Shown here in pieces: positions 5,472-22,639 of a stretch of DNA of 64,000 nt. The notes below the pieces were generated by a model. The model was not told the DNA's origin and made no database searches. It worked only from the letters and a program-made list of their open reading frames with translations. This DNA comes from a virus. The DNA lies in IMG/VR virus record IMGVR_UViG_3300045988_175656, one strand, 5' to 3'. Every line of letters begins with the position of its first letter. Position 1 is the first letter of the stretch. The position numbers and the translations under genes were made by a program.

Positions 5472-6191
5472 TTAATATTCTTCACTTGCTTTCATAATTC
5501 CTTCAAGAAGTGATATTTCCTTAATATCAAAAAGATAGTATTCGTCCTGTGTATCATACGAATAATCACAATTATTACATATTTGTCCTTTTGCGTTAAG
5601 ATAAATCATTGTATCAACATTAATATAATCTTCAAGTTCTTCAATACTAATTTCTTTGGTGTAGTCTAATGTTTTCCAACCGCCTAATTCATATCCTCTG
5701 CCCTCTGAAATGATATTACGCACATTATATTCATCATTTCTAAGTGAGAAGAAAGAAAGCATGGAAAGAAATTGAATACTTTCTTTTTGTTCTTTTGGGT
5801 ATGTGTGGTAACTATCATTTGATAATTGTATCATTGATAAACATTCATCTTTATAATTTTGATACATATACATTTCAATCAATAAATGTATAAATTCTAA
5901 TGATTGGCAAGATTTTCTACCATTAACAACTATGTAAAAATTACTTACAGATATTTTTAATCTCTTCAATTCCTCTAATATAAAACGTATTGCAGGAATA
6001 TTTAGAGTAGGTTCACCACCTGTAATTGTAAGGCTACCAATTGAACTAATATCTTGTAATGCTTTTGTAATATATGCTTTATGTATATTTCTTTTTTGTG
6101 CTTCACCTCTTAAACAATGCGCACATTTCATATTACATTTGCGTGTTACTTCAATTGCCAATTCATTTAAAATTAATTTCTTCTTTTCCAT
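5472..6191 (-). CDS. radical SAM enzyme (short, twitch/SPASM-like C-terminal Cys motif)
   Basis: CNMKCAHC (CX3CX2C) near the N-terminus, LTITGGEPTL SAM-binding motif, C-terminal GQICNNCDYSY. Confidence 0.85.
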   Translation of the reverse strand: MEKKKLILNELAIEVTRKCNMKCAHCLRGEAQKRNIHKAYITKALQDISSIGSLTITGGEPTLNIPAIRFILEELKRLKISVSNFYIVVNGRKSCQSLEFIHLLIEMYMYQNYKDECLSMIQLSNDSYHTYPKEQKESIQFLSMLSFFSLRNDEYNVRNIISEGRGYELGGWKTLDYTKEISIEELEDYINVDTMIYLNAKGQICNNCDYSYDTQDEYYLFDIKEISLLEGIMKASEEY

Positions 6192-7158: not shown

Positions 7159-7881
7159 CTAAATTATATTTTCCGTTAAGAATTTTTCCCCTTTTAAGTG
7201 TCTTATGTGCCCCTCATTATAAGTCATTGGTTTGGGATTAATAAAACAACTTTCAAAAGTAAATCTCGTATGTTTTCTATTATCTTGATTTTTATCAATG
7301 TTTTGTGTTTTAATGAATGAAGAGAAATACTGTTGAGTTAAATCATTTATTTTTACATCACCATTAAATTCCATATCAACATTACCATTTTGTGTAATAT
7401 ATTGTGGCATTCCGTTTGGTGCTTTTACCAATACACTATCTTGATTATACTTCTTACATAGATTAATTGCAAGATTTTTTAAAGCGTTAAAATCCTTTTC
7501 ATTTCCATTTCTATCGAAATTTAACACAATGTAAGAAGTTTCATATACTTGTTTTTCATTTTCAGTTCCTTTGTTTTCAATAAAACCACCAAAAACAGGT
7601 ACAAATGAAAATCCAGAATTTTTAATATCATTTAATAATTGTTTAGATAATTTATTATTGGTTTGATTATCATTTTCTCCACGAGAAGCTGATATGATTA
7701 TAAAACCGTTATTATAATGTTTACCTAACAATCTATCAACCGTCATTTCATTTAAAGGCTGTAAAGGAAATGTATTGGTATCACCTACTTCCATATATTC
7801 TTTGATAAGATTATATTGTTTAGCTAAATTAGTATTACATAACTTATCAAATTGTTCATTTATATTTTTTAAAATAGTCAT
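7159..7881 (-). CDS. hypothetical protein
   Basis: ORF track, 240 aa; no motif recognised. Confidence 0.7.
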   Translation of the reverse strand: MTILKNINEQFDKLCNTNLAKQYNLIKEYMEVGDTNTFPLQPLNEMTVDRLLGKHYNNGFIIISASRGENDNQTNNKLSKQLLNDIKNSGFSFVPVFGGFIENKGTENEKQVYETSYIVLNFDRNGNEKDFNALKNLAINLCKKYNQDSVLVKAPNGMPQYITQNGNVDMEFNGDVKINDLTQQYFSSFIKTQNIDKNQDNRKHTRFTFESCFINPKPMTYNEGHIRHLKGEKFLTENII

Positions 7882-9821: not shown

Positions 9822-10047
9822 AAACTTATATGTTTTAATTGTTTAGTGCAAATGTAGGGCATTTTTTTGAAACTACCAAATTTTAGACCTTTTTTTAACT
9901 TACTTTCACACATAATTCATTTTTAGTTAAATTCACATAAAGTATGTCTATTGTTAATAAATCTTAACAACAGTCTATCTCTACATAGGTGCGAAGTTAC
10001 AAAATACTTTTCATATAAGCAAGTGTTTTAACATTTTTTAGTGTTTA

Positions 10048-10127
10048 TTAACTATTAATGTTAAAATATATTGGAGACTATACTTTAGTATTTTACTACT
10101 ACCTTTTCTTTTTCTATATCAAAGATA
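10048..10127 (-). repeat. promoter-coupled conserved element, copy E
   Basis: -7 box caaagata 10120-10127, core 10073-10086, TTAAC 10048-10052 (20-nt spacer). Confidence 0.75.
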
Positions 10128-10260
10128 AGGGAAATAATTGATATATACAAGTGTTTAACAGAGATTAACGTAATGTATTTTTATATGGCTTATATCAATG
10201 CTAAAAATGTATTTTAATGTTAATGAATGTAATTTGCTTGCGTATGTCAATTATAAATCT

Positions 10261-10268
10261 TACATTTG
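10261..10268 (+). promoter_or_regulatory. -7 box TAcaTTTG, first plus-strand early promoter
   Basis: Followed by the conserved leader ATCAAAATTAAAGAAGTACTAACAATTAAAGATTTAAAGTTATG. Confidence 0.55.
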
Positions 10269-10312
10269 CATATCAAAATTAAAGAAGTACTAACAATTAA
10301 AGATTTAAAGTT

Positions 10313-10579
10313 ATGGATAGTTATAAAACAATTGAGAGCAGAGTTTTTGAAACGGTTGAAAATGCCATCAAAAATGATATAAGATATAAAGACTATTTTA
10401 TAATAGTTCGTAGTGATAATTCTTATTATGTAGTTGGCAAAGATATAATTACATTAAATCTTATTTTAGATAAGGCTGTTAAAAATATATTTCGTTTTGA
10501 TAATAGCGAGCTTGACTATATTTTATCATCACTTGTTCGTAGTGGTTTTAGAGTAGCAATTATCGAGAGTGAAAAATAA
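10313..10579 (+). CDS. hypothetical early protein (weak MutS domain-I-like pattern)
   Basis: ORF track; AAAGTTATG start. The C-terminal LDYILSSLVRSGFRVAIIES resembles the MutS [20 protein letters not shown] motif. Confidence 0.65.
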   Translation: MDSYKTIESRVFETVENAIKNDIRYKDYFIIVRSDNSYYVVGKDIITLNLILDKAVKNIFRFDNSELDYILSSLVRSGFRVAIIESEK

Positions 10580-10595
10580 TGTTCCACGTGAAACA
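10580..10595. promoter_or_regulatory. parS site TGTTCCACGTGAAACA
   Basis: Exact match to the chromosomal parS consensus TGTTNCACGTGAAACA. Sits in the 24-nt gap between two early genes. Confidence 0.8.
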
Positions 10596-10603
10596 ATTTA
10601 GTT

Positions 10604-10867
10604 ATGGAAAATAGAGAAGTTAAAGATATTGCAATAATCGCAAATTTATTAGACGGAAAAGTTAAATTCCGTAAAATCGAATGGTCTCAAATATTAATGG
10701 GTAAACATGGAGAAAGTTTTAATGATTTGTACTTTATTGGGAAAAAACATGGAGTATATTTTTATACAAGTAGAGCGAGTTTAGATAGATTATGTTATCT
10801 TAACAATAAAGATATGCCTACTTATGTGGTTTGTGAAGAAAGTAAAAATGTTTTTAAAATAGAATAA
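10604..10867 (+). CDS. hypothetical early protein
   Basis: ORF track; TAGTTATG start 8 nt after parS. Confidence 0.6.
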   Translation: MENREVKDIAIIANLLDGKVKFRKIEWSQILMGKHGESFNDLYFIGKKHGVYFYTSRASLDRLCYLNNKDMPTYVVCEESKNVFKIE

Positions 10868-10916
10868 AAAAAAAATTAACTTGTTTTCAATTGCTATTGA
10901 TTTTAAATTAATACAT

Positions 10917-10953
10917 AATAGTTAGGGCTTGTGAAAGTCTTAACTATTTTTTT
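10917..10953 (+). terminator. bidirectional-looking terminator hairpin
   Basis: AATAGTTAGGGCT/AGTCTTAACTATT stem (2 G-U pairs) plus a T-run; an A-run lies on the other side. Confidence 0.6.
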
Positions 10954-10959
10954 AATTTT

Positions 10960-11042
10960 TTAACTAAAAAAGTTAATATCTGTTGGAGACTATACTCTAT
11001 ATTATTACATATACCTTTTTATTTTTTCTTTATACAAATGTA
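10960..11042 (-). repeat. promoter-coupled conserved element, copy F (opposes flanking genes)
   Basis: -7 box caaatgta 11035-11042, core 10985-10998, TTAAC 10960-10964 (20-nt spacer). Confidence 0.75.
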
Positions 11043-11240
11043 AGCATTATATTTGATATATGCAAATTATTATCTAATTATTTTCTCTAAATTAAGTTTT
11101 ATTAATACAAAAATTGTTTTGTGTTAATGAATAATAAAAGAAAGTGCAAATGTATTGTAGTCTCAAATAAAGTTCTTATATTTGCAGTGTTGAAAGACAA
11201 AAGAATAAATTATATAATCAAACATTTAAAAATTATAGTT

Positions 11241-11921
11241 ATGAAAGAAGTAAATTTTGTATTGTATTTTGGAGCAAACAGAGGTAAAAATGCTTTGAAT
11301 AATCCTCAAACTGTGACAACTCATGCTAATTGTGATGCGGTTACACGTGAAAAAGAAAATCTTTTTAAAGCGATTTATGGCTACTTAGTTGAATTGTCTG
11401 ATATGGGTATCAGTTATGCAGATACGTTTTATCATCCTTCGCAAACTTGTTTTACAGTGTATCAAACAACCTTAGTAGAACCTACTGTTTATGTGAAATC
11501 TTTGGAAAATAACCAAGTAGGAATTTTTGTCAAAGGTTTGGAAAGAAAAACCGATATTGAGTTTAACTTTTTGCTTGATATGGAAATACATATCACCACA
11601 TTAAGAAACCTTTCAAAAGCGGTTTATTTTGCTCTTTTACACGCAAAGAAAGATGCTGCAAATAAAGCTCGTGAAGAAGAAGAAAAACGTCAAAAAGAAG
11701 AAAAAGAACTTTTTGAAATGTTTGTAAATAATTCTCCTTACATACAAATGAACTTGAAAAGTCGTGATGAATTGTTATCACAGATTATTCAGTTGGAACA
11801 ACTTTTGAACAAAAGAGACAGAGAGTTTTTAACTAATTTAAGTGAACACATGGAAAAGTTAAGCGGAAAAGAAACAGCGGAACGTTTTGTTAAGTTCATG
11901 CAAGAAAAGCTAAATTCATAA
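11241..11921 (+). CDS. hypothetical early protein with Glu/Lys-rich coiled-coil
   Basis: ORF track 11121..11921 starts on GTG and contains a TAtaTTTG box. The ATG at 11241 has the ATAGTTATG context. Confidence 0.65.
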   Translation: MKEVNFVLYFGANRGKNALNNPQTVTTHANCDAVTREKENLFKAIYGYLVELSDMGISYADTFYHPSQTCFTVYQTTLVEPTVYVKSLENNQVGIFVKGLERKTDIEFNFLLDMEIHITTLRNLSKAVYFALLHAKKDAANKAREEEEKRQKEEKELFEMFVNNSPYIQMNLKSRDELLSQIIQLEQLLNKRDREFLTNLSEHMEKLSGKETAERFVKFMQEKLNS

Positions 11922-11943
11922 CTTTAAATATTGTTAATTAATT

Positions 11944-11987
11944 AAAGAAAGTCTGCTATCTGTTTGGATATGTCAGACTTTCTTTTT
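11944..11987 (+). terminator. rho-independent terminator
   Basis: AAAGAAAGTCTG (11944-11955) / CAGACTTTCTTT (11974-11985) plus T-run. Confidence 0.7.
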
Positions 11988-12067
11988 ATCTTTGTATATC
12001 GAAAATAAAAAAGTAATAGTAAAATATTAGAGTATAGTCTCCAACAGGTAAAATATAAAACTGTTAA
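11987..12067 (+). repeat. promoter-coupled conserved element, copy G
   Basis: -7 box TATCTTTG 11987-11994, core AGAGTATAGTCTCC 12029-12042, GTTAA 12063-12067 (20-nt spacer). Confidence 0.75.
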
Positions 12068-12139
12068 TGAATGTGAATTTTTTAATAATCATTAACACAA
12101 AAATATATCAAAAAATTAGGTTCGTATTGAAATAAGCCT

Positions 12140-12147
12140 TATCTTTG
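12140..12147 (+). promoter_or_regulatory. -7 box TAtcTTTG
   Basis: Followed by leader ATCAAAATTAAAAACAATAAAGTTATG. Confidence 0.55.
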
Positions 12148-12176
12148 CACATATCAAAATTAAAAACAATAAAGTT

Positions 12177-12428
12177 ATGAAAACAATTCAAGAAGTATTA
12201 AATATTATTGCTACATCTGATTTAATAATGTATGCAGTTAATTACATTGATTTGATAGATGAAAATGTACCTAATACGAATGCAAGTATCGTTTTAAATT
12301 TTAGGTATAGTAATATAAGTTTGTTATTAATGAATGAAATTTTGAATATCATTCTTACAAACGGTTTATCTTATAATATGGATATTGATAATAAGATAAT
12401 GTATATATACTATAAAATAGAAAAATAA
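12177..12428 (+). CDS. hypothetical early protein
   Basis: ORF track; AAAGTTATG start. Confidence 0.55.
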   Translation: MKTIQEVLNIIATSDLIMYAVNYIDLIDENVPNTNASIVLNFRYSNISLLLMNEILNIILTNGLSYNMDIDNKIMYIYYKIEK

Positions 12429-12480
12429 ATTAATTAATATTCTTTAACACAAAATATTTGGTGGCTATAAAAAAAGTCCT

Positions 12481-12488
12481 TATCTTTG
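12481..12488 (+). promoter_or_regulatory. -7 box TAtcTTTG
   Basis: TATCTTTGTAACATCAAAATAAGAG... leader to ATG 12555. Confidence 0.55.
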
Positions 12489-12554
12489 TAACATCAAAAT
12501 AAGAGAAACCAAAACAATTAAAAATATAAATTTAACAATTAAAAATTTGAAGTT

Positions 12555-13469
12555 ATGAAAAAGAATGAACTTAAAGTTAGCGTGATTATCGAAAATGGTA
12601 TGGTAAGAAAAGAAATGGTAGAAATCTTTTACAGTGAAGATTATGATTTGTTAAACAATTTCGATGGCAACCGTTTAGGTAGTGACGAACAAAAAGAAAG
12701 CGGAAATTATTCTGCAAACGAAATAAAGGCTTTTGATAGTCGTGTTAATAAACTTGTTGCATCTATGCAAAAACGTATTGCAGACGGAAAAGAGGGTTTT
12801 GACAAAAATTTTCCTATACTTGTTGCAGTCATAGACGGTAAAAAAGTAAACATAGACGGACAAGGTAGAAAAGCTGCTTGTAAAAGGTTAGGTATCGGTT
12901 TTTGGTATCGTATATTAGACCAAAAGTTTGATACAATGAAAGATTTGATTAATTATACTATCTCAATAAATACCACTGCATCAAGCTGGAAAATTACTGA
13001 CAAATATAAGGCTTGGGCGATTGCAAATGACCGCAAAGACTTGTTAGAAATTATGCTTGATTGTACAAAAAAATTTGACATTGCAGAAAATTTAACATTA
13101 ATGGTTCTGTTCAAAAATCAGAATGTTTGCAAAAAGAATAATTTCAACATTGACAATATTAAAATTAAAACATATACAGAACAAGCAAAAATCGACTTGT
13201 ACGAAATTTTGAATTTCAGACAAGAATTGATTAACGCAATAAAAGGTTTGAGAGATAGTGAAGGACACAAAGTAGCTATCAAGAAAGAAGAATGTTTGCA
13301 CGCTATTGTAAATTTTTATTGCCAAAATAGCAAACTTAATCGCACAATTGCGGTAAAATATGTGGCTGAATATTATCAAAAAAGCGATATGAAAATTTTT
13401 ACCGCCAATACTACATTATTTGAAAAATTTTTAAATCGCTGTGCGCTTAATCATGATGAAAAGATTTAA
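12555..13469 (+). CDS. ParB/sulfiredoxin-fold protein (DGQHR/DndB-like variant)
   Basis: ILVAVIDGKKVNIDGQGRKAACKRLG resembles the ParB N-domain GERRxRAAxxAG / DGQHR motif. Confidence 0.7.
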   Translation: MKKNELKVSVIIENGMVRKEMVEIFYSEDYDLLNNFDGNRLGSDEQKESGNYSANEIKAFDSRVNKLVASMQKRIADGKEGFDKNFPILVAVIDGKKVNIDGQGRKAACKRLGIGFWYRILDQKFDTMKDLINYTISINTTASSWKITDKYKAWAIANDRKDLLEIMLDCTKKFDIAENLTLMVLFKNQNVCKKNNFNIDNIKIKTYTEQAKIDLYEILNFRQELINAIKGLRDSEGHKVAIKKEECLHAIVNFYCQNSKLNRTIAVKYVAEYYQKSDMKIFTANTTLFEKFLNRCALNHDEKI

Positions 13470-13576
13470 ACTTCATAACTTTAATTTTTGATTGAAAAAG
13501 GGAGTACTAATAAAAAAAGTACTTCCTTTTTTACATTTATTAACACAAAATATTTGGTTCGTATTGATAAAAGCAT

Positions 13577-13584
13577 TATCTTTG
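13577..13584 (+). promoter_or_regulatory. -7 box TAtcTTTG
   Basis: Preceded by TTATTAACACAAAATATTTGG and followed by the ATCAAAATAAGAG leader. Confidence 0.55.
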
Positions 13585-13633
13585 TCATATCAAAATAAGA
13601 GATAATAAGTTTAACAATTTAAAAACTAAAGTT

Positions 13634-13828
13634 ATGAATAGAATTAAATTTTTTGGTAGTGTTGGTATGGTAATGTTTATCATGTGGTTGTGCTTTTGGA
13701 TGTTTGGCGGTTGGTATGTGAAAGGTAGTTTTGAAACATTCTCCTATATTTGGTTAGGTGTTTGTGTGGCTGTTTTAGTCGCTGTTAATAGCAAATTAAC
13801 TAAGATACATAAAGAGATAAGCAAATAA
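13634..13828 (+). CDS. small membrane protein (2 predicted TM)
   Basis: ORF track; hydrophobic stretches VGMVMFIMWLCFWMFGGWY and IWLGVCVAVLVAV. Confidence 0.6.
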   Translation: MNRIKFFGSVGMVMFIMWLCFWMFGGWYVKGSFETFSYIWLGVCVAVLVAVNSKLTKIHKEISK

Positions 13829-13884
13829 GTAGATAATTCAAGGTAGGGCAAATAAATAAGCCCTACCAATAAAATATAAAAGTT

Positions 13885-14235
13885 ATGAGTAAAAAATTCA
13901 AGTTATATGCAACAATAAAAGAAAATGTAGGCTATCAGTCTAATTTGAATAATAATAGAGACAGTTATAACAATGCGCTTTTCTTACTTCGTGGAAAAGA
14001 AATTGAGATAGAGACAGACTATTTGTTTCTTAATCAGTTAAACACTGCACCAATTAAAGATATTAGTAAGAACGGTTTAAGATTATATTTTAATGATATT
14101 AAGTCTTTAAGAATAGAAAACCGTACTTTTCGCACTATTAAAATGAGAGTGAAAAAGTTTTATAAAAGTGCTTGGGATGTTGATATTAAAGAACAACAAC
14201 TTAAAGGATATAAACTTTTATTAGGAATTAATTAA
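13885..14235 (+). CDS. hypothetical early protein
   Basis: ORF track; AAAGTTATG start. Confidence 0.6.
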   Translation: MSKKFKLYATIKENVGYQSNLNNNRDSYNNALFLLRGKEIEIETDYLFLNQLNTAPIKDISKNGLRLYFNDIKSLRIENRTFRTIKMRVKKFYKSAWDVDIKEQQLKGYKLLLGIN

Positions 14236-14278
14236 TTCTTATTAACACAAAATATTTGGTAGGTATTGAAAAAATACC

Positions 14279-14356
14279 TACCTTTGTTGTGTAAGAAAAA
14301 AGTAGGGGTAATATTCTAAAGTATAGTCTCCAACAGGTAAAATATAAAATTGTTAA
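14279..14356 (+). repeat. promoter-coupled conserved element, copy H
   Basis: -7 box TACCTTTG 14279-14286 (hairpin 14258-14282 embedded), core AAAGTATAGTCTCC 14318-14331, GTTAA 14352-14356 (20-nt spacer). Confidence 0.75.
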
Positions 14357-14428
14357 TAAATGCAAAAATTTTAATATTATTTAACATAAAAAAGTATTGA
14401 AATGTTTTGGTGTATCGAATATTATTCG

Positions 14429-14436
14429 TACATTTG
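14429..14436 (+). promoter_or_regulatory. -7 box TAcaTTTG
   Basis: Upstream of the parS-containing leader of 14504. Confidence 0.5.
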
Positions 14437-14470
14437 CATATCGGAAATACAGAAATAAGTTATTAACCAT

Positions 14471-14486
14471 TGTTTCACGTGGAACA
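14471..14486. promoter_or_regulatory. parS site TGTTTCACGTGGAACA
   Basis: Exact reverse complement of the 10580 site; lies inside the 5' leader of 14504..15034. Confidence 0.8.
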
Positions 14487-14503
14487 ATTAAAAATTTAAA
14501 GTT

Positions 14504-15034
14504 ATGGGTAATGTTTATTACATGGATAAAGAAACATTTGTTTTGAAAAGCAAACAACAAATTTTGGTTTATAATTACATGATTGAAGATTTAAAAAACA
14601 TTCTTCCAATTGTGCAAAAATTTGACCAAAGGTTTTTAACCAAAAGATTAACTACTGCAATAGAAAAAGTTTTGAAACATTGCATAGTTAGTTTACACGC
14701 TGATAAAATAAAAATCAGCATACAAGGAGAGTTAAGATACGTTAAAGGTGGTGGCTATATTGAATGGGACAGTTACGATATAGATTTAGATGTTAATAGA
14801 CTTGGTTGGTTGTTAAATTCTGAAAAAAGTATTGAAAACATTCAATCGACTATTAATTACTTTGAAAAACAGATTAACGAATACCAACTATGTATCACTA
14901 ACTATGATGAATTTGTTAATAAACGTTTAGAAATTGAAAAACAAATTGAAGAATACCAAAAACTTGTGCCTTATTGTATGCGAACAGGTTTTAGTGTATA
15001 TGGTACTAAATATTATATAGATGAAATAAAATAA
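14504..15034 (+). CDS. hypothetical early protein
   Basis: ORF track; AAAGTTATG start. Confidence 0.65.
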   Translation: MGNVYYMDKETFVLKSKQQILVYNYMIEDLKNILPIVQKFDQRFLTKRLTTAIEKVLKHCIVSLHADKIKISIQGELRYVKGGGYIEWDSYDIDLDVNRLGWLLNSEKSIENIQSTINYFEKQINEYQLCITNYDEFVNKRLEIEKQIEEYQKLVPYCMRTGFSVYGTKYYIDEIK

Positions 15035-15069
15035 AAGTTAAAATATTTGCAAAGGTAGATTTTATTTTC

Positions 15070-15077
15070 TACCTTTG
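15070..15077 (+). promoter_or_regulatory. -7 box TAccTTTG with embedded hairpin
   Basis: AAAGGTAGAttttattttCTACCTTTG. Confidence 0.5.
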
Positions 15078-15123
15078 CATAAACAATAAAAAACTAAAGT
15101 TTTATTTTAAAGCGTTTTAAAAC

Positions 15124-15507
15124 ATGAAAAAATTATTATTTAATACATTATCAAGACAAACAAAAGAGCTTGAAAAAACGGCTAAAAATGCTATTTTAGC
15201 CTTATTAAATGAGATACCAAACAAAACATATCAGACTGATAAAATAGACGAAGAAAGAAATATAACAACCTATGATAATGAAAAATTTGCTTTTGTAGGC
15301 TGTTATATTGATAAAACAAAAGGCACATTTACATATAATCTACATGATGGGTTAAAGTTATTAGGCTATAAAATAATAAATGATAATGATATGATAAGCG
15401 AAATATTATACAATAAACTGTATGAAATAGAGCTTTTTAATATTGATAATATTCAACTATTAAACGTTATAAAATACATCAATGAGATAGAATTTTCTGA
15501 GGATTAA
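15124..15507 (+). CDS. hypothetical early protein
   Basis: ORF track. Confidence 0.6.
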   Translation: MKKLLFNTLSRQTKELEKTAKNAILALLNEIPNKTYQTDKIDEERNITTYDNEKFAFVGCYIDKTKGTFTYNLHDGLKLLGYKIINDNDMISEILYNKLYEIELFNIDNIQLLNVIKYINEIEFSED

Positions 15508-15550
15508 GATTTATTAACTCAAATAATTTGCAAGGTACGGATGTTCTTCG

Positions 15551-15558
15551 TACCTTTG
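15551..15558 (+). promoter_or_regulatory. -7 box TAccTTTG with embedded hairpin
   Basis: TTTGcaaGGTACGgatgttcttCGTACCTTTG, then the canonical leader. Confidence 0.55.
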
Positions 15559-15600
15559 TTGTATCAAAATTAAAGTACTAACAATTAAAAAATTAAAGTT

Positions 15601-15765
15601 ATGAAAAAGTTAAAATCTATTGAGCTTTACAGAAATTTTCCAGTTATAGACCAAAAACAAAATTCTAATTTTATTTTAAAATTATTTCCTTTTTTCTTTC
15701 AGAAATTAAAAAAAACAATGTGGATAGAAATACCTTTTGTTGGCGTTAAAATAGTAATTAATTAA
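15601..15765 (+). CDS. small hypothetical protein (54 aa)
   Basis: Own translation MKKLKSIELYRNFPVIDQKQNSNFILKLFPFFFQKLKKTMWIEIPFVGVKIVIN. Full canonical promoter, leader and AAAGTTATG start. Confidence 0.45.
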   Translation: MKKLKSIELYRNFPVIDQKQNSNFILKLFPFFFQKLKKTMWIEIPFVGVKIVIN

Positions 15766-15817
15766 TATTATTAACGAATAATAACATAGAATATTTGGTA
15801 GGGAACGGAAATTTCCC

Positions 15818-15825
15818 TACCTTTG
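15818..15825 (+). promoter_or_regulatory. -7 box TAccTTTG with embedded hairpin
   Basis: TTTGGTAGGGAAcggaaaTTTCCCTACCTTTG. Confidence 0.55.
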
Positions 15826-15868
15826 TATTATAAGAAATAAGAAGTACTAACAATTAAATTTTAAAGTT

Positions 15869-16084
15869 ATGGGATGTTTAAATGTTAAAAAGTATAACGC
15901 TATGCAAGCGGAACGGGAACAAGAATTTTTAAACAAGTTAGACCGTACAGGATTAACAGAAACAGATATTAAAAAAATGTGTGAAAGCTACTTTCCACGT
16001 ATTAACAAAAATTATGGCTTTGTTACGTTTGATAACAGAACTTGTGCAACTGAAATTCATTGGCACAAAAGAAAACCTTATTAA
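15869..16084 (+). CDS. hypothetical early protein
   Basis: ORF track; AAAGTTATG start. Confidence 0.6.
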   Translation: MGCLNVKKYNAMQAEREQEFLNKLDRTGLTETDIKKMCESYFPRINKNYGFVTFDNRTCATEIHWHKRKPY

Positions 16085-16127
16085 CAACAATTAACTCAAA
16101 TAATTTGGTGGGGAAAGAAATTTCCCC

Positions 16128-16212
16128 TATCTTTGTAATACAGAAAAGGAAACAAAGGTATAAGTAACATTATAGAGTATAGTCTCCAACATATTTAATA
16201 TAAAATAGTTAA
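16128..16212 (+). repeat. promoter-coupled conserved element, copy I
   Basis: -7 box TATCTTTG 16128-16135, core AGAGTATAGTCTCC 16174-16187, GTTAA 16208-16212 (20-nt spacer). Confidence 0.75.
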
Positions 16213-16286
16213 AAAATACTAATTAAATTAATAATTTTTAATACAAAATAATTTGTAAAATACTTGCATAATTGAAATATTATCTA

Positions 16287-16294
16287 TATCTTTG
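16287..16294 (+). promoter_or_regulatory. -7 box TAtcTTTG
   Basis: Followed by ATCAAAATTAAGAAGATTACTAACAATTAAATTTTAAAGTTATG. Confidence 0.55.
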
Positions 16295-16339
16295 TATTAT
16301 CAAAATTAAGAAGATTACTAACAATTAAATTTTAAAGTT

Positions 16340-16624
16340 ATGGCAAATTTCATTTTTCTTAAAAACGACTCTTATAATAGTCCCGTAGTTGCAAAATTGG
16401 CTGTTATTGAAATAGAAGGTGACTATGATTGGTGGCACATTAAAACACGCCCTATCAAGGCTACTAAACGAAATATAGAGCTTTTAAAACTCTATGCAAG
16501 AGAGAACACAACAGATTATATGTGTTGTGAATACGATTGCACAGGTAGCACTAAAAGAACATATAAAGTAAAAGTTAAAAAAGGTAAATGTTGGTTAATT
16601 GAATATGGTAGTGTAGATTGCTAA
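16340..16624 (+). CDS. hypothetical early protein
   Basis: ORF track; AAAGTTATG start. Confidence 0.6.
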   Translation: MANFIFLKNDSYNSPVVAKLAVIEIEGDYDWWHIKTRPIKATKRNIELLKLYARENTTDYMCCEYDCTGSTKRTYKVKVKKGKCWLIEYGSVDC

Positions 16625-16667
16625 CATTTATTAACATAAATAATTTGGTAGGTATCAGAGAAATACC

Positions 16668-16675
16668 TACCTTTG
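16668..16675 (+). promoter_or_regulatory. -7 box TAccTTTG with embedded hairpin
   Basis: TTTGGTAGGTATcagagaaATACCTACCTTTG. Confidence 0.55.
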
Positions 16676-16700
16676 TTTCAAACAATTAAAAAGAATAGTT

Positions 16701-16976
16701 ATGGAAGAAAAAATTAAACAATTTGTTAAACAGCTAAATGAAAAATATCCCGAATATGTAACATCATACACACAAGGGAAAAAGTTTTACAAAATATGGA
16801 GAACATTTGGCGTGCAGAAATGTATCTATTGTTTTGTAGATATGGACGGAAATATTTACAAAGCTGCAAGTATTAACGCACCCGCAAAACATATTAGAGG
16901 GCACATTTCAGAACCTTTTAAAGACAATTGTTGCGGACGTTACGGAATTAAGTATTTAAAAGGTCCTAACTTCTAA
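16701..16976 (+). CDS. hypothetical early protein
   Basis: ORF track. Confidence 0.6.
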   Translation: MEEKIKQFVKQLNEKYPEYVTSYTQGKKFYKIWRTFGVQKCIYCFVDMDGNIYKAASINAPAKHIRGHISEPFKDNCCGRYGIKYLKGPNF

Positions 16977-16987
16977 TTAAGTTTATT

Positions 16988-17027
16988 AACATTTGGTGAA
17001 GTGTAGTAGCCAAATGTTAATTTTTTT
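16988..17027 (+). terminator. bidirectional-looking terminator hairpin
   Basis: AACATTTGG (16988-16996) / CCAAATGTT (17010-17018) plus T-run. Confidence 0.65.
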
Positions 17028-17035
17028 AATATTTT

Positions 17036-17114
17036 TTAACTAAAAAAATATAGATGTGTTGGAGACTATACTCTAAGATATTACTCTTACCTTTTTTATT
17101 ACATTACAAAGATA
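17036..17114 (-). repeat. promoter-coupled conserved element, copy J (opposes flanking genes)
   Basis: -7 box caaagata 17107-17114, core 17061-17074, TTAAC 17036-17040 (20-nt spacer). Confidence 0.75.
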
Positions 17115-17273
17115 AGAATAATTTCTTTAAGTACCAAATATTTGATTAATTTTTATTGTTCATTAACACAATATAGTTTTAAAGTTAATTTTGTGTTAAA
17201 GATAGAAAAATACTTGTTTGGTATTGATATAATTCATACTTTTGTGCATATCAAAATTAAAAGCAATAAAGTT

Positions 17274-17546
17274 ATGAAAGCAAAAAATTACATTCCGCAA
17301 ATTTCTGTTTATTACAGTGAGAGAAACTATAATGACTATAATAACGCTATACAACAAGCTATAAAGCGTTTTAAAGAGTTTTATTCCCGTTTTGATAAAA
17401 GACTACTCACAACAAAGAAAAAAGTTAATGTGAACATAAAAGGGCACATTTTAAATGTGAATATTGACTTTAATAAAGTACATTATTCACAATGTTATGA
17501 GATAGTAAACTATAACGAAATAAAAGGGCTACAAATCAATTATTAA
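17274..17546 (+). CDS. hypothetical early protein
   Basis: ORF track 17142..17546 starts on TTG and spans a TActTTTG box (17237-17244). The ATG at 17274 has the AAAGTTATG context. Confidence 0.6.
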   Translation: MKAKNYIPQISVYYSERNYNDYNNAIQQAIKRFKEFYSRFDKRLLTTKKKVNVNIKGHILNVNIDFNKVHYSQCYEIVNYNEIKGLQINY

Positions 17547-17550
17547 AGAT

Positions 17551-17799
17551 ATGGCACGAAATATAAGTCTTTCAACCGTAGAGAAAATTTTTAATAATTT
17601 AGGTGATGTTAAATTAGAACCTAAAGTTTATAAACAAATTGAAAAAGAATTACGATTTGAGGGGAGAGATAAAAGGTTTGATTTATTTGTTGAGGCTGGC
17701 ACAAATAAATCTATGCTCTTTAAGTTTATGAAAAAAAGATACTATGTTTACTATGATTACAGTATTAATAAGTGGAAAGCTGAATATAATATAAGATAA
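17551..17799 (+). CDS. hypothetical early protein
   Basis: ORF track; begins 4 nt after the previous stop. Confidence 0.6.
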   Translation: MARNISLSTVEKIFNNLGDVKLEPKVYKQIEKELRFEGRDKRFDLFVEAGTNKSMLFKFMKKRYYVYYDYSINKWKAEYNIR

Positions 17800-17917
17800 A
17801 ATAATACTATGTTAATTTATAGTTAAATATAGGAAAATATTTGTTTGGTATTAATTTAATTCTTATCTTTGTACTATCAAAATTAAGGAAATTATTAACA
17901 ATTAAAAAATAAAAGTT

Positions 17918-18424
17918 ATGGCAATATTCGGAAATTTCGTAGGTAAAAAAGATTTAGAATTAACAAACGAAGAAAAAGAAATGTTTATGAATTTCTTCAA
18001 AATGAAACTTTTTAACTATCATAATTGCAATTTTGAAAAGGTATTAACAATTCAAAATGTAAAAGAAGAGTGTTATACAACTTTTACAGATTTTAAATCA
18101 TATTACTTTATTTTCAAGCCAAAAGAAAGTTTAAATGGGAGAAACGTTAAAAGAGATAGAGTTATTGATTTTTCGGGTATTTCTTTTATAATTCGCAAAG
18201 AAAGCGGTTTTTTAGAGATAAAAAATAAAGAAGAAAATATAAATACGCCCGAATTTCAATATTCTTTAAATATCCTTATTCAAGGAAAACAAATAAGGTA
18301 TAAATGTAGAAATATAGAAAGTATTTCTTTAAAAAATTCGTTTCAATTTGGTACTGAATTAAGCGATTTCGATTTTTCAGCTACTTTCTATGACTTATAT
18401 AGAACACTTTATGGCTTATATTAA
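17918..18424 (+). CDS. hypothetical early protein
   Basis: ORF track; AAAGTTATG start. Confidence 0.65.
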   Translation: MAIFGNFVGKKDLELTNEEKEMFMNFFKMKLFNYHNCNFEKVLTIQNVKEECYTTFTDFKSYYFIFKPKESLNGRNVKRDRVIDFSGISFIIRKESGFLEIKNKEENINTPEFQYSLNILIQGKQIRYKCRNIESISLKNSFQFGTELSDFDFSATFYDLYRTLYGLY

Positions 18425-18441
18425 TTAAAAATAAAATAGTT

Positions 18442-18636
18442 ATGAAAGAAAAATATTTTATAGTTGTAAACGAAACAAAGAAAGAAATATACTTTGCGTC
18501 TAAAAATCAATTCAGAGCACAACATTTTACAAAATTCATTTACCAAAAATATGATAAACATGTTTCCTGTGTGCCACGTTATTTGACGCAAAAAGAAATT
18601 GAAATGTATAAAGATATAATCAGTAAGAGAGGTTAA
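18442..18636 (+). CDS. hypothetical early protein
   Basis: ORF track. Confidence 0.55.
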   Translation: MKEKYFIVVNETKKEIYFASKNQFRAQHFTKFIYQKYDKHVSCVPRYLTQKEIEMYKDIISKRG

Positions 18637-18648
18637 AATAAATAAAAT

Positions 18649-18679
18649 GTTAAGAATTTGACTGTTCTTAACATTTTTT
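18649..18679 (+). terminator. bidirectional-looking terminator hairpin
   Basis: GTTAAGAA (18649-18656) / TTCTTAAC (18665-18672) plus T-run; A/T-rich on the other side. Confidence 0.65.
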
Positions 18680-18774
18680 AACTTATTTTTATATATAAAA
18701 AATAAAGCATAACGGAGACTATACTTTAGAATATTACTTCTACTTTTTCCCCCTTTTGGAACACTACAAAGATA
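18678..18774 (-). repeat. promoter-coupled conserved element, copy K (opposes flanking genes; 31-nt spacer variant)
   Basis: -7 box caaagata 18767-18774, core 18714-18727. The nearest TTAAC is 18678-18682 (31-nt spacer). CCG replaces CCAA after the core. Confidence 0.7.
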
Positions 18775-18931
18775 AGAAGAATATTTGAAACTAACAAATT
18801 TATTCCAATGATTAACATTTAATTAACTCTTAAAACGTATTGTGTTAATCAATATTAATAAATCACGTTTTATTTGGTAGATATAAAATTAATTCATATA
18901 TTTGCAATATCAAAATTAAAACAAAGAAGTT

Positions 18932-19402
18932 ATGGAAAAGAATTTAGAGTATTACAGAGAACAATGTCAAGAAATTGCAAACATGATTGCAAATGAAGTT
19001 ACGGACGCAAAAAGTGTTAAAGTTGATTGTGGCGGCTTTTGTCCTTACTTGTGCTTTATTAGAATAGACGCACTTGACAAAAAAGATTATATAAATAATA
19101 TATCAAATAATAGTATCTTTATAGATATTAAAATAGACTTTCAAGAAAATAAATTTGAACTGTTTAGAGATGGACACATTTACCTATCACCAAAGGATAA
19201 AAAAACACCACAATTTAAATATTTAGCTATGCGTGGTATGATTAATATTGCAGAAGAAAAAGGAGTTAAAAAAATGCGTAAAACAAAGCATAAAGACAAT
19301 AAAACAACCGCTAATAAAATAGCTCTTTACTTCAATGAAGTTATGAAAGCTGTAAAAGAATATACAGGCGGTTATCCTTACAGACAAGGAATCGAAGAGT
19401 AA
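18932..19402 (+). CDS. hypothetical early protein
   Basis: ORF track. Confidence 0.65.
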   Translation: MEKNLEYYREQCQEIANMIANEVTDAKSVKVDCGGFCPYLCFIRIDALDKKDYINNISNNSIFIDIKIDFQENKFELFRDGHIYLSPKDKKTPQFKYLAMRGMINIAEEKGVKKMRKTKHKDNKTTANKIALYFNEVMKAVKEYTGGYPYRQGIEE

Positions 19403-19483
19403 TTAACATTTATTAATACAAAAAATTTGGTAGGAATGAAATAATTTCCTACCTTTGTATCAAACAATTAAAGATAACAAGTT

Positions 19484-19702
19484 ATGGATAAAGAAAAAAT
19501 TATTAATAGTATTTGTATAGCTTGCAGAGCTACACAAGGCGGTACTTTAAAGTTTGGTACAGGCGGTTTTGTAGATTTTTCTGTAAGTTGGGATTATCAA
19601 TGTAATTTTGACATTTTTAATCTTAAAACAAAAAAACATCACTTTTGTAGCACTTTAGGCACAGCCGTTGAAATTGTTGAAAAATTATTAACAGAAATAT
19701 AA
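19484..19702 (+). CDS. hypothetical early protein
   Basis: ORF track. Confidence 0.55.
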   Translation: MDKEKIINSICIACRATQGGTLKFGTGGFVDFSVSWDYQCNFDIFNLKTKKHHFCSTLGTAVEIVEKLLTEI

Positions 19703-19745
19703 CATTTATTAACTCTAAAAATTTGGTGATATGAGATAAAAGTCG

Positions 19746-19753
19746 TACATTTG
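19746..19753 (+). promoter_or_regulatory. -7 box TAcaTTTG driving an ORF-free unit
   Basis: Preceded by TTATTAACTCTAAAAATTTGG, the usual upstream element. Confidence 0.55.
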
Positions 19754-19759
19754 TAATAA

Positions 19760-20176
19760 AGAAATACAACTAACAGAAAAAGAGATTAAGTATTAATTTT
19801 AATAATGTCTAAAAATGGAAACAAATAAGCCACCGCCCTAAAAAGGTTATTTAAATTTGATAATATAAGATAGAATAATTTAATAGCTACGAAAACTAAC
19901 AAGGTACGCAAGTTTAAAGAGTAAAAAGTTTTAGAACGTACTGCATTAAGCGAAAAAGCTATGCCACCACAGTATTAAGTTTATAACATTATAATATATA
20001 GAGTAATTTAATTTATATTTAATTTTAACTTTCCGCTGTTTGCGGACTAAAAACATAAGTATGCACTTAATTAGAGATAAGACCATATAAAAATTATATG
20101 TAATATAGAATGAATTTATAGATTAAGAAAATAAGGCAAAAGCTCTGATAATACCGTCATTTATCAGAGCTTTTTT
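19760..20176 (+). ncRNA. candidate non-coding RNA of about 420 nt (function unknown)
   Basis: Canonical promoter at 19746-19753 and terminator at 20141-20176. The longest plus-strand ATG ORFs I found encode no more than 9 aa. Nested complementary segments: ATAGCT 19883-19888/AGCTAT 19957-19962, GTACG 19904-19908/CGTAC 19937-19941, TCCGC 20032-20036/GCGGA 20042-20046. Confidence 0.4.
20141..20176 (+). terminator. bidirectional-looking terminator hairpin
   Basis: AGCTCTGATAA (20141-20151) / TTATCAGAGCT (20161-20171), flanked by an A-run and a T-run. Confidence 0.75.
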
Positions 20177-20187
20177 AATTACAGTTT

Positions 20188-20271
20188 TTAACATTTTTTA
20201 TAAGTACGTGACGGAGACTATACTTTAAAGTTTTAACCTTACCTCTTTGTTTTTCTTACACTACAAAGATA
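20188..20271 (-). repeat. promoter-coupled conserved element, copy L (opposes flanking genes)
   Basis: -7 box caaagata 20264-20271, core 20213-20226, TTAAC 20188-20192 (20-nt spacer). Confidence 0.75.
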
Positions 20272-20428
20272 AGGATAATAATTCAATCTACCAAACATTA
20301 TTTCAGTTTTAACATTACTTTAACACAAAATACTTAATATGTTAATATTGTGTTAAAGATATGATATTACTTGCATATATGAAAAATAACATATATATTT
20401 GCAATATCAAAATTAAAGTAATAAAGTT

Positions 20429-20869
20429 ATGATTGGAAAAGATAAAAGTTACATTAAAAGTAACGAGATTACAGAAATAAAACTAAAAGCGTTTAGAAGC
20501 TCTTTTTCAAAGGATATTATTCTTTGTGGGGAAAGTATTACAGATAGACAAAAAGTATCTCAAAAGTGCTTAGATTATCTCTGTGATAAATTTAAAATTG
20601 AAAAGGTGAAACTAACAGTTTTAAATAAGCCACAAAGAAAAAAAGCAAATGGCAAAACTTTAGGTTTTTATACTGTTGGGAGAAATCATATCACAATATA
20701 TAATCTAACAGCCACCACACAAAAAACTGTATCTATAAAAACTTTTTACGATACATTATTACATGAATTTATGCACCACTATGACTATAAAGTTTTAAAA
20801 CTTGAAAACAGTCTGCATACAAGCGGTTTTTATCAAAGAATAAGCGACTTAAAAAATAAATTGCAATAA
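20429..20869 (+). CDS. putative SprT-like zinc metallopeptidase
   Basis: HExxH motif in TLLHEFMHHYDY; AAAGTTATG start. Confidence 0.55.
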   Translation: MIGKDKSYIKSNEITEIKLKAFRSSFSKDIILCGESITDRQKVSQKCLDYLCDKFKIEKVKLTVLNKPQRKKANGKTLGFYTVGRNHITIYNLTATTQKTVSIKTFYDTLLHEFMHHYDYKVLKLENSLHTSGFYQRISDLKNKLQ

Positions 20870-20965
20870 AAACATTTATTAACACAAAAAATTTGATTAT
20901 TAAAGAAAAACACCTTATCTTTGTAACATCAAAATAAGAGAATTAACAATTTAAAAATTAAAGTT

Positions 20966-21091
20966 ATGGAAATAGAATTATTAAAGAAAGCAATTTATAT
21001 CAGAACTAAAAAGTTTTCAATTTGGTTCGGATGGCTATCATTCTCAAAAAATGATTGTTTTATACCAACATTCTATTTTAATAAGTTGTAA
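20966..21091 (+). CDS. small hypothetical protein (41 aa)
   Basis: Own translation MEIELLKKAIYIRTKKFSIWFGWLSFSKNDCFIPTFYFNKL; full canonical promoter, leader and AAAGTTATG start. Confidence 0.4.
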   Translation: MEIELLKKAIYIRTKKFSIWFGWLSFSKNDCFIPTFYFNKL

Positions 21092-21110
21092 CATTTTAAA
21101 TTTTAAAGTT

Positions 21111-21425
21111 ATGTTATATAGTGGTGAAACCGTTTTTTTAAAAAGTACTGATAATGCAAAAGCAAATGTACTCTGCAAGCAAGTTAATAAACTGACAGCA
21201 AAAAAATTATATGATAAGGGAGTTAAAATTTGGTTACATCCTTGCAATTTAACGCTTAATAACGTTTGGCAAGTGCCTTATCATTTCCAAAAAAGCGAAA
21301 CAAATACTGAATGTTTTGATAGCCTTGTTAATTCTTTTAGGTGGTATAATTGTGACAGACAGAGAGGTAAAAGAATTATTTTCTTTGCCGAATGTGATAA
21401 AATGGGAAAATTACTTCATTCTTAA
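21111..21425 (+). CDS. hypothetical early protein
   Basis: ORF track 21051..21425 trimmed to the ATG with the AAAGTTATG context (MLYSGETVFL...). Confidence 0.55.
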   Translation: MLYSGETVFLKSTDNAKANVLCKQVNKLTAKKLYDKGVKIWLHPCNLTLNNVWQVPYHFQKSETNTECFDSLVNSFRWYNCDRQRGKRIIFFAECDKMGKLLHS

Positions 21426-21436
21426 AAACTGACAGT

Positions 21437-21583
21437 ATGACAAACATATTATATATAGGGCTATTTACAGCCCTTTTAATAGCACTTTTTTTCTTTGCAA
21501 TGAAAGTATTATCTAAGCAAAGAAAAGCTAACAGAGAGGAAAAAACTCGCTTTATTTGGGCGAATATAAGATATAAAACATAA
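21437..21583 (+). CDS. small membrane protein (48 aa)
   Basis: Own translation MTNILYIGLFTALLIALFFFAMKVLSKQRKANREEKTRFIWANIRYKT; one TM helix. Confidence 0.35.
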   Translation: MTNILYIGLFTALLIALFFFAMKVLSKQRKANREEKTRFIWANIRYKT

Positions 21584-21742
21584 CTTTAGATTTATAGAAC
21601 TTAATTTTGATGAAAAAATGCACCCGTTTGTGAAAATAGGTGCATTTTGCTTTTATTAACACAAATAATTTGTATATGATAAATAAATCGCTTATCTTTG
21701 TAATATCAAAATAAGAGTACTAATAATTAAAATTTTAAAGTT

Positions 21743-21928
21743 ATGATACATTTTAATTCTCATCCAGAAGTAATAAATATTACAGCAGCCACTAATGCTA
21801 ATCAGATAACAAAAGAATACTATGATTTTTTAGTAGGAGAAATTAATAGAGGTACAATAAAAAAAGCTGTTTGTCGTATTGAGAATGAAGTATTTGGTAC
21901 AGTATCTTATCATTTAATATCATATTAA
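21743..21928 (+). CDS. hypothetical early protein
   Basis: ORF track; AAAGTTATG start. Confidence 0.5.
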   Translation: MIHFNSHPEVINITAATNANQITKEYYDFLVGEINRGTIKKAVCRIENEVFGTVSYHLISY

Positions 21929-21978
21929 CATTCATTAGTGATAATAATTTGTATATTCAAAATTAAAAATTTAAAGTT

Positions 21979-22251
21979 ATGGATAATAATTTACAAGAAT
22001 TTAGATTTAATACAGGTGTAAAAGTATATAGTTTTTGTCCTCCAGTTCCTTGTGTGGGTGAATATCAAATTGTAGACGGAAACGGAGTTAAAATAATTTT
22101 GTTTTATTGTACTGATGTTCCGAAAAATGCTACTTTCTTATTTGCTTGCGATACGCCTAATTTAGACAAAGCAAAAGAAAATAATGTGATAGTAAGGGAA
22201 ATTATAAAAGGTGGCTTATGTTCCAAATATGCTTATTTTAAAACTTATTAA
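21979..22251 (+). CDS. hypothetical early protein
   Basis: ORF track; AAAGTTATG start. Confidence 0.6.
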   Translation: MDNNLQEFRFNTGVKVYSFCPPVPCVGEYQIVDGNGVKIILFYCTDVPKNATFLFACDTPNLDKAKENNVIVREIIKGGLCSKYAYFKTY

Positions 22252-22338
22252 CACAAAATATTTGGAACATATCAAAAAAATACCTATCTTTGTAATATCA
22301 AAATTAAAGAAGTTACTAACAATTAAAAATTTAAAGTT

Positions 22339-22539
22339 ATGAAAAAATTTCAATTAAGTTTTCAAGCAAGAAAGATTAATGCAATCGGAATTGTTTACAA
22401 TAACTCTGCAACTGTGGTTGCAGATAATTTACAAGAAGCAACAAATTATCTTTACACAATCTTTGAGCATATAAAAGATATAAAAATTGTGAAAAAAACT
22501 AAAACAAATATGGAAAAGGGAATTGTTAAACATAGTTAA
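22339..22539 (+). CDS. hypothetical early protein (last gene of plus early arm)
   Basis: ORF track; AAAGTTATG start. Confidence 0.55.
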   Translation: MKKFQLSFQARKINAIGIVYNNSATVVADNLQEATNYLYTIFEHIKDIKIVKKTKTNMEKGIVKHS

Positions 22540-22545
22540 AAAAAT

Positions 22546-22561
22546 TGTTCCACGTGGAACA
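22546..22561. promoter_or_regulatory. parS site TGTTCCACGTGGAACA (perfect palindrome)
   Basis: Matches the parS consensus half-sites on both arms. Lies 7 nt after the stop of 22339..22539 and abuts the GC-rich island. Confidence 0.75.
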
Positions 22562-22639
22562 CCCCCTACATGGGGGCTACCCCCGTAACCCCCCACTCCG
22601 TTCCCCCTACCTTGAAGGGGTGGGTAAAACAGGGAACGG
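22562..22639 (+). other. GC-rich structured island (C-runs on plus / G-runs on minus)
   Basis: Hairpin CCCCC (22562-22566)/GGGGG (22572-22576). An 8-bp stem CCGTTCCC (22598-22605)/GGGAACGG (22632-22639) encloses CCCTACC..GGGTGGG. The minus strand carries four runs of at least 5 G. Confidence 0.6.

Follow-up and report, generated by a model that had tools for sequence, protein, structure and literature searches.

The 64,000-nucleotide stretch analysed here in full (the window) comes from the IMG/VR virus record IMGVR_UViG_3300045988_175656 and makes up about one-sixth of a tailed-phage genome of ~380-400 kb with a guanine-plus-cytosine (GC) content of ~26%; we put the whole genome at ~390 kb because contigs from independent ENA assemblies measure 379,891 to 401,320 bp. 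Positions 1-22,540 of the window consist of two divergent arms of small genes, with the coding strand and the GC skew both flipping near 10 kb. The rightward early-gene arm (10313..22539, + strand) comprises ~30 small genes, of which many have a host-type promoter to themselves, and contains three 16-bp sites that match parS, the centromere site of the chromosomal ParABS partition systems of bacteria. A pattern search across the 64 kb returned exactly three exact matches to TGTTNCACGTGNAACA, at 10580, 14471 and 22546, all of them intergenic. Site 1 (TGTTCCACGTGAAACA, 10580..10595) begins immediately after the stop codon of the open reading frame (ORF) at 10313-10579 and covers 16 of the 24 nucleotides that separate the first two genes of the arm, the second of which starts with the ATG at 10604. 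Site 2 (TGTTTCACGTGGAACA, the reverse complement of site 1; 14471..14486) lies in the 5' leader of ORF 14504, 17 nucleotides 5' of its ATG and 3' of a Bacteroidota-type -7 promoter box (TACATTTG, 14429..14436, + strand). Site 3 (TGTTCCACGTGGAACA, a perfect palindrome; 22546..22561) is found 6 nucleotides beyond the last gene of the arm (ORF 22339-22539) and abuts the sole stretch in the window with a GC content of at least 60%. The initial annotation of this sequence had placed the sites in just these contexts, namely a gene gap, a 5' leader and the arm's end beside a GC-rich island.

The matches are not a product of chance, as had been claimed from the outset. None of 100 dinucleotide-preserving shuffles of the window yielded even one match to TGTTNCACGTGNAACA, and the expectation computed from base composition (A/T 0.37, G/C 0.13) is ~1e-4 matches per window. 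Raising the tolerance to three mismatches adds just two weak matches, at 11339 and 34212. The first of these (11339-11354, GGTTACACGTGAAAAA, three mismatches) is a degenerate parS-like 16-mer within ORF 11121, and its retention in one relative, L226, likely reflects coding conservation. Outside the three full sites the window shows no enrichment of parS half-sites (7 seen against 4.1 +/- 2 expected). Since their flanks differ, the three sites are not copies of one longer repeat.

Conservation of the sites among related phages

The relatives in which we followed the sites come from independent assemblies (IMG/VR, ENA and Logan), the close ones being IMG/VR contigs 215-380 kb long that derive from sample 3300045988, which a preprint describes as co-assembled from human faecal material (10.1101/2023.07.31.550844). 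Site 1 is kept in the same gene gap in L001-L003, L226, L230, L322, L323 and L327 (our labels for the contigs) and is absent in no relative that covers it, with variation at position 5 alone, which is C or T. Site 3 is identical in 10 of the 10 relatives covering it. Site 2 is retained in L001-L003, L230, L326 and L228, with variants just at positions 5 and 12, and in L228 it persists although the downstream protein is only 32% identical; it has been lost twice, in L226, where the whole gene block is gone, and in L327, where the intergenic region is short. Sites 1 and 3 are core components of this phage group, and site 2 is accessory and dispensable. The initial annotation had named conservation in relatives among the observations on which its claim would stand or fall, and sites 1 and 3 are present in every covering relative; its count of three is right for the window, but the number is not fixed across the group, as site 2 is missing in two relatives.

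The early arm around the sites has diverged considerably, with neighbouring proteins down to 32-70% identity. The early proteins share ~50-90% identity with those of the window in L003 and 32-76% in L228, genes have been gained and lost between the sites, and the non-coding flanks carry both substitutions and indels. Within the sites, all differences fall at position 5 (T/C) or position 12 (A/G), with none at the other 14 positions, and every site of the window and its relatives exactly matches the 16-bp inverted repeat TGTTNCACGTGAAACA or its reverse complement. For the at least three substitution events involved, the computed probability that all should fall at positions 5 and 12 by chance is ~(2/16)^3 = 2e-3. 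In chromosomal parS sites found beside parB genes, the same two positions read T/A in 35 cases, T/G in 11, C/A in 7 and C/G in 1, a tally of Bacillota parS only, since the best 80 ParB loci, those closest to Spo0J, were all Bacillota-like. The phage sites therefore vary at exactly the two positions that are variable in chromosomal parS. As the sites have kept their positions despite protein divergence, and as their substitutions are confined to the positions that parS tolerates, they appear to be under selection. We consider it very probable that the three 16-mers are selected binding sites of the parS type. In the survey of ParB loci, three contigs labelled as uncultured Muribaculaceae (L302, L314 and L316) have 28-30% GC and a ParB 48-50% identical to Spo0J of Bacillus subtilis; from these values they look like misbinned contigs of Bacilli.

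Partition genes and the ParB-fold protein of ORF 12555

With flanks of ~10 kb on the left and ~8 kb on the right, the region inspected for partition genes spans -10 to +72 kb, or ~82 of the ~390 kb. Pfam searches of the window ORFs and the flanking loci recovered no ParA, bearing out the first impression that none lies in the window; the ParA/CbiA-type matches that do occur there are spurious and fall inside a ClpB-like AAA+ protein. Likewise, no window ORF or called flanking gene matches ParBc or ParB_N. The make-up of a self-encoded ParABS cassette is thus lacking, with neither a ParA gene nor a canonical ParB gene beside the sites, which are 'orphan' throughout the inspected region.

A protein related to ParB is nevertheless encoded among the sites. 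ORF 12555 (12555..13469, + strand), situated between sites 1 and 2, has an N-terminal domain of the ParB/sulfiredoxin (Srx) fold with a DGQGR motif. The motif GFDKNFPILV...DGQGR..AC is invariant; six homologues all read DGQGR, and the consensus of the wider family, which numbers 449 representatives, is DGQHR. Few of these representatives match ParB_N, GmrSD_N or DUF6551, and ORF 12555 itself has no Pfam match. With its AlphaFold model (pLDDT 73) as the Foldseek query, the top 19 PDB matches are all ParB, Noc, Spo0J or sulfiredoxin, at weak scores (probability up to 0.99, E-values of 2e-3 and worse, TM 0.25-0.44). Profile alignment with hhalign pairs residues 62-146 with residues 45-119 of Spo0J (probability 76%, E-value 2e-5) and sets DGQGR (DGQGRKAA) onto the GERRF of Spo0J, so that the Box II GERRxRA motif for cytidine triphosphate (CTP) is not reproduced. 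The ParA-contact motif LG(R/K)GL is absent from the translated sequence, hhalign aligned the N-terminal domain alone and no ParB helix-turn-helix, and residues 121-304 modelled separately gave no Foldseek match to a ParB/Noc DNA-binding domain (all E-values >1). The same N-terminal fold and a DGQ(H/G)R-type motif are found in the atypical phage ParB-CTPase-fold proteins (ParB_N/DUF6551 and DndB-like DGQHR proteins; PMC12704722); these have no known link to parS, and any that ORF 12555 may have is purely positional. Judged by its model and alignments, ORF 12555 is a predicted ParB-fold protein and not a canonical ParB (TIGR00180-type), so the early hunch about this gene holds for its N-terminal fold and fails as regards a genuine ParB, given the DGQGR motif and the lack of a detected DNA-binding domain.

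These features bear on the main alternative to a host ligand, according to which ORF 12555, or a canonical ParB (perhaps with a ParA) encoded in the other ~310 kb, binds the sites, either as a self-contained partition system or as a regulatory network with dispersed sites resembling those of KorB or N15 SopB. ORF 12555 accompanies the sites in all relatives and is, from its fold and its place, a candidate partner or alternative ligand; the plasmid prophage N15 offers a precedent for dispersed centromeres, with four separate inverted-repeat sites (PMC7205306), and the portion of the genome inspected is ~82 of ~390 kb. Against this stand the replaced CTP motif and the missing ParA contact, a C-terminal half unlike the DNA-binding domain of ParB or Noc, and eleven distant family members in other phages with no parS within +/-10 kb. 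In addition, the gene exists as two alleles, 36% identical, that have been swapped amid flanks of ~95% (90-98%) identity while the sites remained unchanged (L226, L228 and L230). L003 presents the converse, with 93% identity in this gene and ~60-70% in its flanks, and the pattern as a whole suggests cassette exchange or diversifying selection. A survey further records that phage ParB-fold/DUF6551 proteins bind ATP, not CTP (PMC12704722). Finally, a copy of the pan-bacterial consensus fits a host protein, whereas a private system should avoid cross-talk. We regard a phage-encoded ligand as unlikely, while still the foremost of the alternatives.

Host ParB as the proposed ligand and the possible functions of the sites

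The sequence of the phage also carries indications of its host. The Bacteroidota -7 box TAnnTTTG occurs within 120 nucleotides upstream of 41 of the 90 window ORFs, against a background of 0.17 per 120 nucleotides, and a Shine-Dalgarno-like sequence precedes just 1 of the 90. Together with a BACON-domain tail protein encoded in the window, the boxes and the lack of Shine-Dalgarno sequences point to a host in the phylum Bacteroidota, whose RNA polymerase would transcribe the early genes. In two gut Bacteroidetes, ParABS is present and consensus parS sites (up to two mismatches) are clustered at the origin domain (PMC10197239). Because the phage sites exactly copy the pan-bacterial consensus and gut Bacteroidetes possess ParABS, the host's own ParB is the simpler candidate for their ligand. 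Hence the reading we favour, though tentatively and at somewhat less than an even chance, is that host chromosomal ParB binds the sites, which would act as a centromere mimic; the phage would in this way borrow the chromosome-segregation protein of its host.

Under this proposal, host ParB would recognise incoming phage DNA as it does the origin region of the host chromosome. Nucleating at the sites, ParB would close into CTP-bound clamps that slide outward; as the spacings of 3.9 and 8.1 kb are within the spreading range of such clamps, one domain resembling a partition complex could form over the ~12-kb arm. Host ParA might then treat the phage genome like a chromosome origin and position or partition it, with the outcome that an extrachromosomal phase (carrier state or plasmid-like) would be stabilised, or that replicating genomes would be suitably placed in the cell. 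The price to the phage would be the 16-bp sites only, with no phage genes needed. Host ParB binding, clamp spreading, ParA-driven segregation and an episomal phase are all steps that we infer, and among the possible outcomes we favour partition or positioning by host ParA because it fits the absence of parAB, the clustering of the sites and the long-term persistence of gut phages. The recruitment of SMC through ParB, proposed in the initial annotation, has become less likely, as the two Bacteroidetes studied have no known condensin homologue (PMC10197239).

Several observations weigh against a host-based centromere mimic. One of the three sites is dispensable, and the clustering is weakly supported, the computed probability that three points placed at random in 82 kb would all lie within 12 kb being ~0.06. 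A protein with a ParB fold is encoded between sites 1 and 2 and accompanies them, and the other ~310 kb of the genome could encode canonical ParAB or hold further sites. No integrase, repressor or replication initiator was recognised in the window, nor any other sign of a lysogenic or plasmid life-style there. Modification of the phage DNA, hinted at by genes described below, may alter recognition by ParB.

Comparison with known systems places the sites between chromosomal and plasmid centromeres. They share with the chromosomal ParABS centromeres of the B. subtilis Spo0J type (TGTTNCACGTGAAACA) the same 16 bp and the same tolerated variants at positions 5 and 12, and their grouping within ~12 kb recalls the origin-proximal clusters of chromosomal parS. 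Unlike chromosomal parS, they are carried by a phage genome away from oriC, have no adjacent parAB, and are putative targets of ParB. Artificial plasmids bearing chromosomal parS and stabilised by Spo0J/Soj exemplify the proposed mechanism, that is, extrachromosomal DNA partitioned by the host; a single chromosomal parS reportedly stabilises an unstable plasmid in a Spo0J/Soj-dependent manner (so Lin and Grossman are said to have found in 1998). Such plasmids are laboratory constructs, of which the phage would be a natural equivalent. Centromere-like sites on a phage genome also occur in the plasmid prophages P1 (parABS) and N15 (sopAB), and in N15 they are located among phage genes. The N15 sites are single, separate inverted repeats and not one array (PMC7205306). 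However, both P1 and N15 have genes for a ParA and a ParB of their own and rely on private site sequences, whereas here the host-chromosome consensus is used and no cognate ParA or ParB appears in 82 kb. The KorB-OB network of plasmid RK2 likewise disperses the site of a ParB-family protein over a replicon, at or near promoters; in contrast to RK2, the phage region shows no KorB/ParB with a matching DNA-binding domain, and of its three sites just the dispensable site 2 lies near a promoter.

In full-text searches we came across no published account of phage genomes carrying chromosomal-type parS, nor of phages using host ParB, in keeping with the novelty claimed at first; parS-type sites as such are frequent on viral contigs, which qualifies that claim. 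At least 120 loci in IMG/VR contigs carry one, and at least 120 also do so with an added AAT flank, a set of contigs classed as viral that includes prophage flanks and misfiled plasmids (cf. PMC12934698). Among the 120 matches listed, 149 of 155 sites (96%) have T/C at position 5 and A/G at position 12, where chance would give 25%, and 20 of the 120 loci have at least two sites. A regular-expression search for the GERRxRA and ENLQR motifs found none in these 120 loci, and a phmmer search with Spo0J over ~230 sequences (the listed viral loci, the window and the relatives) matched two ORFs in the fetched flanks. Thus, at least among the matches listed, it seems common for a contig classed as viral to carry parS-type sites with no canonical ParB close by. 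Four IMG/VR contigs from the same sample 3300045988 (L131, L141, L147 and L184; ~11.3-11.8 kb, 44% GC, 92-95% mutually identical) have a parS-type site ~10-270 bp from each end, in inverted orientation, and could be small linear elements whose terminal repeats each contain a centromere-like site.

Taken at its widest, the proposal would be that a widespread megaphage of human-gut Bacteroidota without partition genes of its own mimics the host centromere and thereby has its ~390-kb genome segregated or positioned by host ParB and ParA; that this underlies the stable persistence of huge gut phages in a carrier state; that the rapidly diversifying ORF 12555 may modulate host ParB; and that the strategy is general and has been overlooked. 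We advance this composite as a speculation whose full set of claims is unlikely to hold together. It would bear on the open problem of how non-lysogenic gut phages, huge ones included, persist for years with their Bacteroidota hosts. If true, the copying of a centromere would provide cheap inheritance or intracellular positioning of a very large episome by means of 16-bp sites, and would constitute a new phage-host interface in which the CTP switch of ParB is hijacked. The frequency of viral parS-type sites suggests that the point may reach beyond this phage, and host ParB signals in chromatin immunoprecipitation or Hi-C could help to link uncultured phages to their hosts.

Binding by host ParB could also serve other ends. 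Replicating phage sites might titrate ParB off the host origin and thereby upset segregation, the control of ParA and DnaA, or division in the course of host takeover. At two to three per genome, the sites would, once the phage has replicated, exceed the 1-10 host sites of gut bacteria (PMC10197239); the sites lie in the first-expressed DNA, and such a sponge would make phage partition genes unnecessary, matching what is observed. Yet it would leave unexplained both the strict positions in the non-coding gaps of one arm and the fixed pairing of site 3 with a GC-rich element, and the gain for a phage that kills its host is doubtful, all of which makes titration improbable as the main role. Somewhat poorer still are the prospects of transcription control, whereby host or phage ParB at the sites would form a roadblock or spread to damp or insulate early genes. 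The location of site 2 between a promoter box and an ATG and of site 3 at the arm's end would suit such a role, and there are precedents in P1 ParB, F SopB and KorB, which silence or regulate genes in the vicinity of their sites (PMC7333895). But ParB of B. subtilis at its native level leaves the neighbours of parS unsilenced (PMC7333895), host ParB, there from time zero, would repress the early genes just at their time of need, the site lost in two relatives is site 2, the very one near a promoter, and most of the ~30 early promoters have no site. The initial suggestion that ParB spreading silences early genes is accordingly weakened along with the one on SMC, and what stands of that interpretation is that a phage early arm holds real, non-random sites of the chromosomal parS type.

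A coincidental resemblance to parS, in which the palindrome would serve as operator for some unrelated regulator, as a target of restriction or methylation with a CACGTG core, or as an RNA or DNA hairpin, has in its favour that the sites are palindromic and intergenic and that site 3 forms a small hairpin in predicted structure, but is highly improbable when 14 fixed positions fit parS in all sites and relatives, conservation reaches well past the CACGTG hexamer, and the window repeats no further GC-containing palindrome. In a hairpin, positions 5 and 12 would be pairing partners, yet they do not co-vary (C/A and T/G both occur), which disfavours an RNA or DNA hairpin and favours recognition of half-sites by a protein.

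Surroundings of the sites and other features of the phage

The GC-rich element that directly abuts site 3 (22562..22630, + strand) contains four C5-6 tracts, and its core, GGCTACCCCCGTAACCCCCCACTCCGTT(C/A)CCCC(T/C)ACC, is invariant in all relatives while the flanks have diverged. Nothing in Rfam matches it, and its predicted hairpin lacks conservation among the relatives; its minus strand could form a G-quadruplex. Among viral contigs the element is confined to this phage group (four relatives), and its absence from 185k reference genomes leaves an origin as a host attB or by horizontal transfer unsupported. On its 3' side follows an AT-rich region with TCCAGAAAATTTTT repeats. Site 3 and the element probably form one composite locus, for which a boundary, an origin or a packaging signal are candidates.

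A divergent intergenic region (9822..10312) at which the GC skew changes sign separates the two early arms, 270 bp away from site 1. To see a replication origin in it is only a guess; no origin features were recognised. The leftward arm and its 10-kb extension have no parS-type site. A second repeat motif, TTGGAGACTATACT, is present in 12 copies (10 exact, 2 near) in both orientations between 2089 and 20224 of the window, against 0.5 expected, and every copy is within the two early arms (e.g. 10071-10084 and 14320-14333); further common intergenic modules are TTATTAACACAAAATATTTGG and the leader AACAATTAAAAATTTAAAGTTATG.

No close cultured relative emerged from megablast searches with two stretches of 13-14 kb, and protein searches returned just distant or partial matches to Lak, Bacillus, Campylobacter and crAss-like phages. 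That the genome is one of a tailed phage as opposed to a megaplasmid is established by its tail genes: ORF 32983 matches tail-fibre PHROGs and has an S74 chaperone domain, and ORF 58296 resembles tail-fibre genes of Campylobacter phages and crAss-like phages over local stretches (9-20% of its length); no capsid, portal or terminase gene was seen in the 64-kb window. An identity with the Hodor megaplasmids was ruled out, since those have 44-47% GC, Bacillota hosts and their own ParAB (PMC12934698). The genes that hint at modified phage DNA or anti-restriction functions are, by sequence similarity, those for a ThyA homologue (47480-48643), a deoxynucleoside monophosphate kinase (63104-63922), a radical-SAM enzyme (5472-6191) and an S-adenosylmethionine lyase (7159-7881); the match of the ThyA homologue is broken into two stretches, suggesting an internal insertion. 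The window also encodes, besides the ClpB-like ATPase, an NAD ligase and a UvrD-like helicase (40071-44054, - strand) that is split by two intein/homing-endonuclease insertions with Hint, Intein_splicing and LAGLIDADG domains. Near its right end lies a gene for a protein with an Ion_trans domain of the voltage-gated cation-channel type (62236-63039, - strand; E-value 2e-19).

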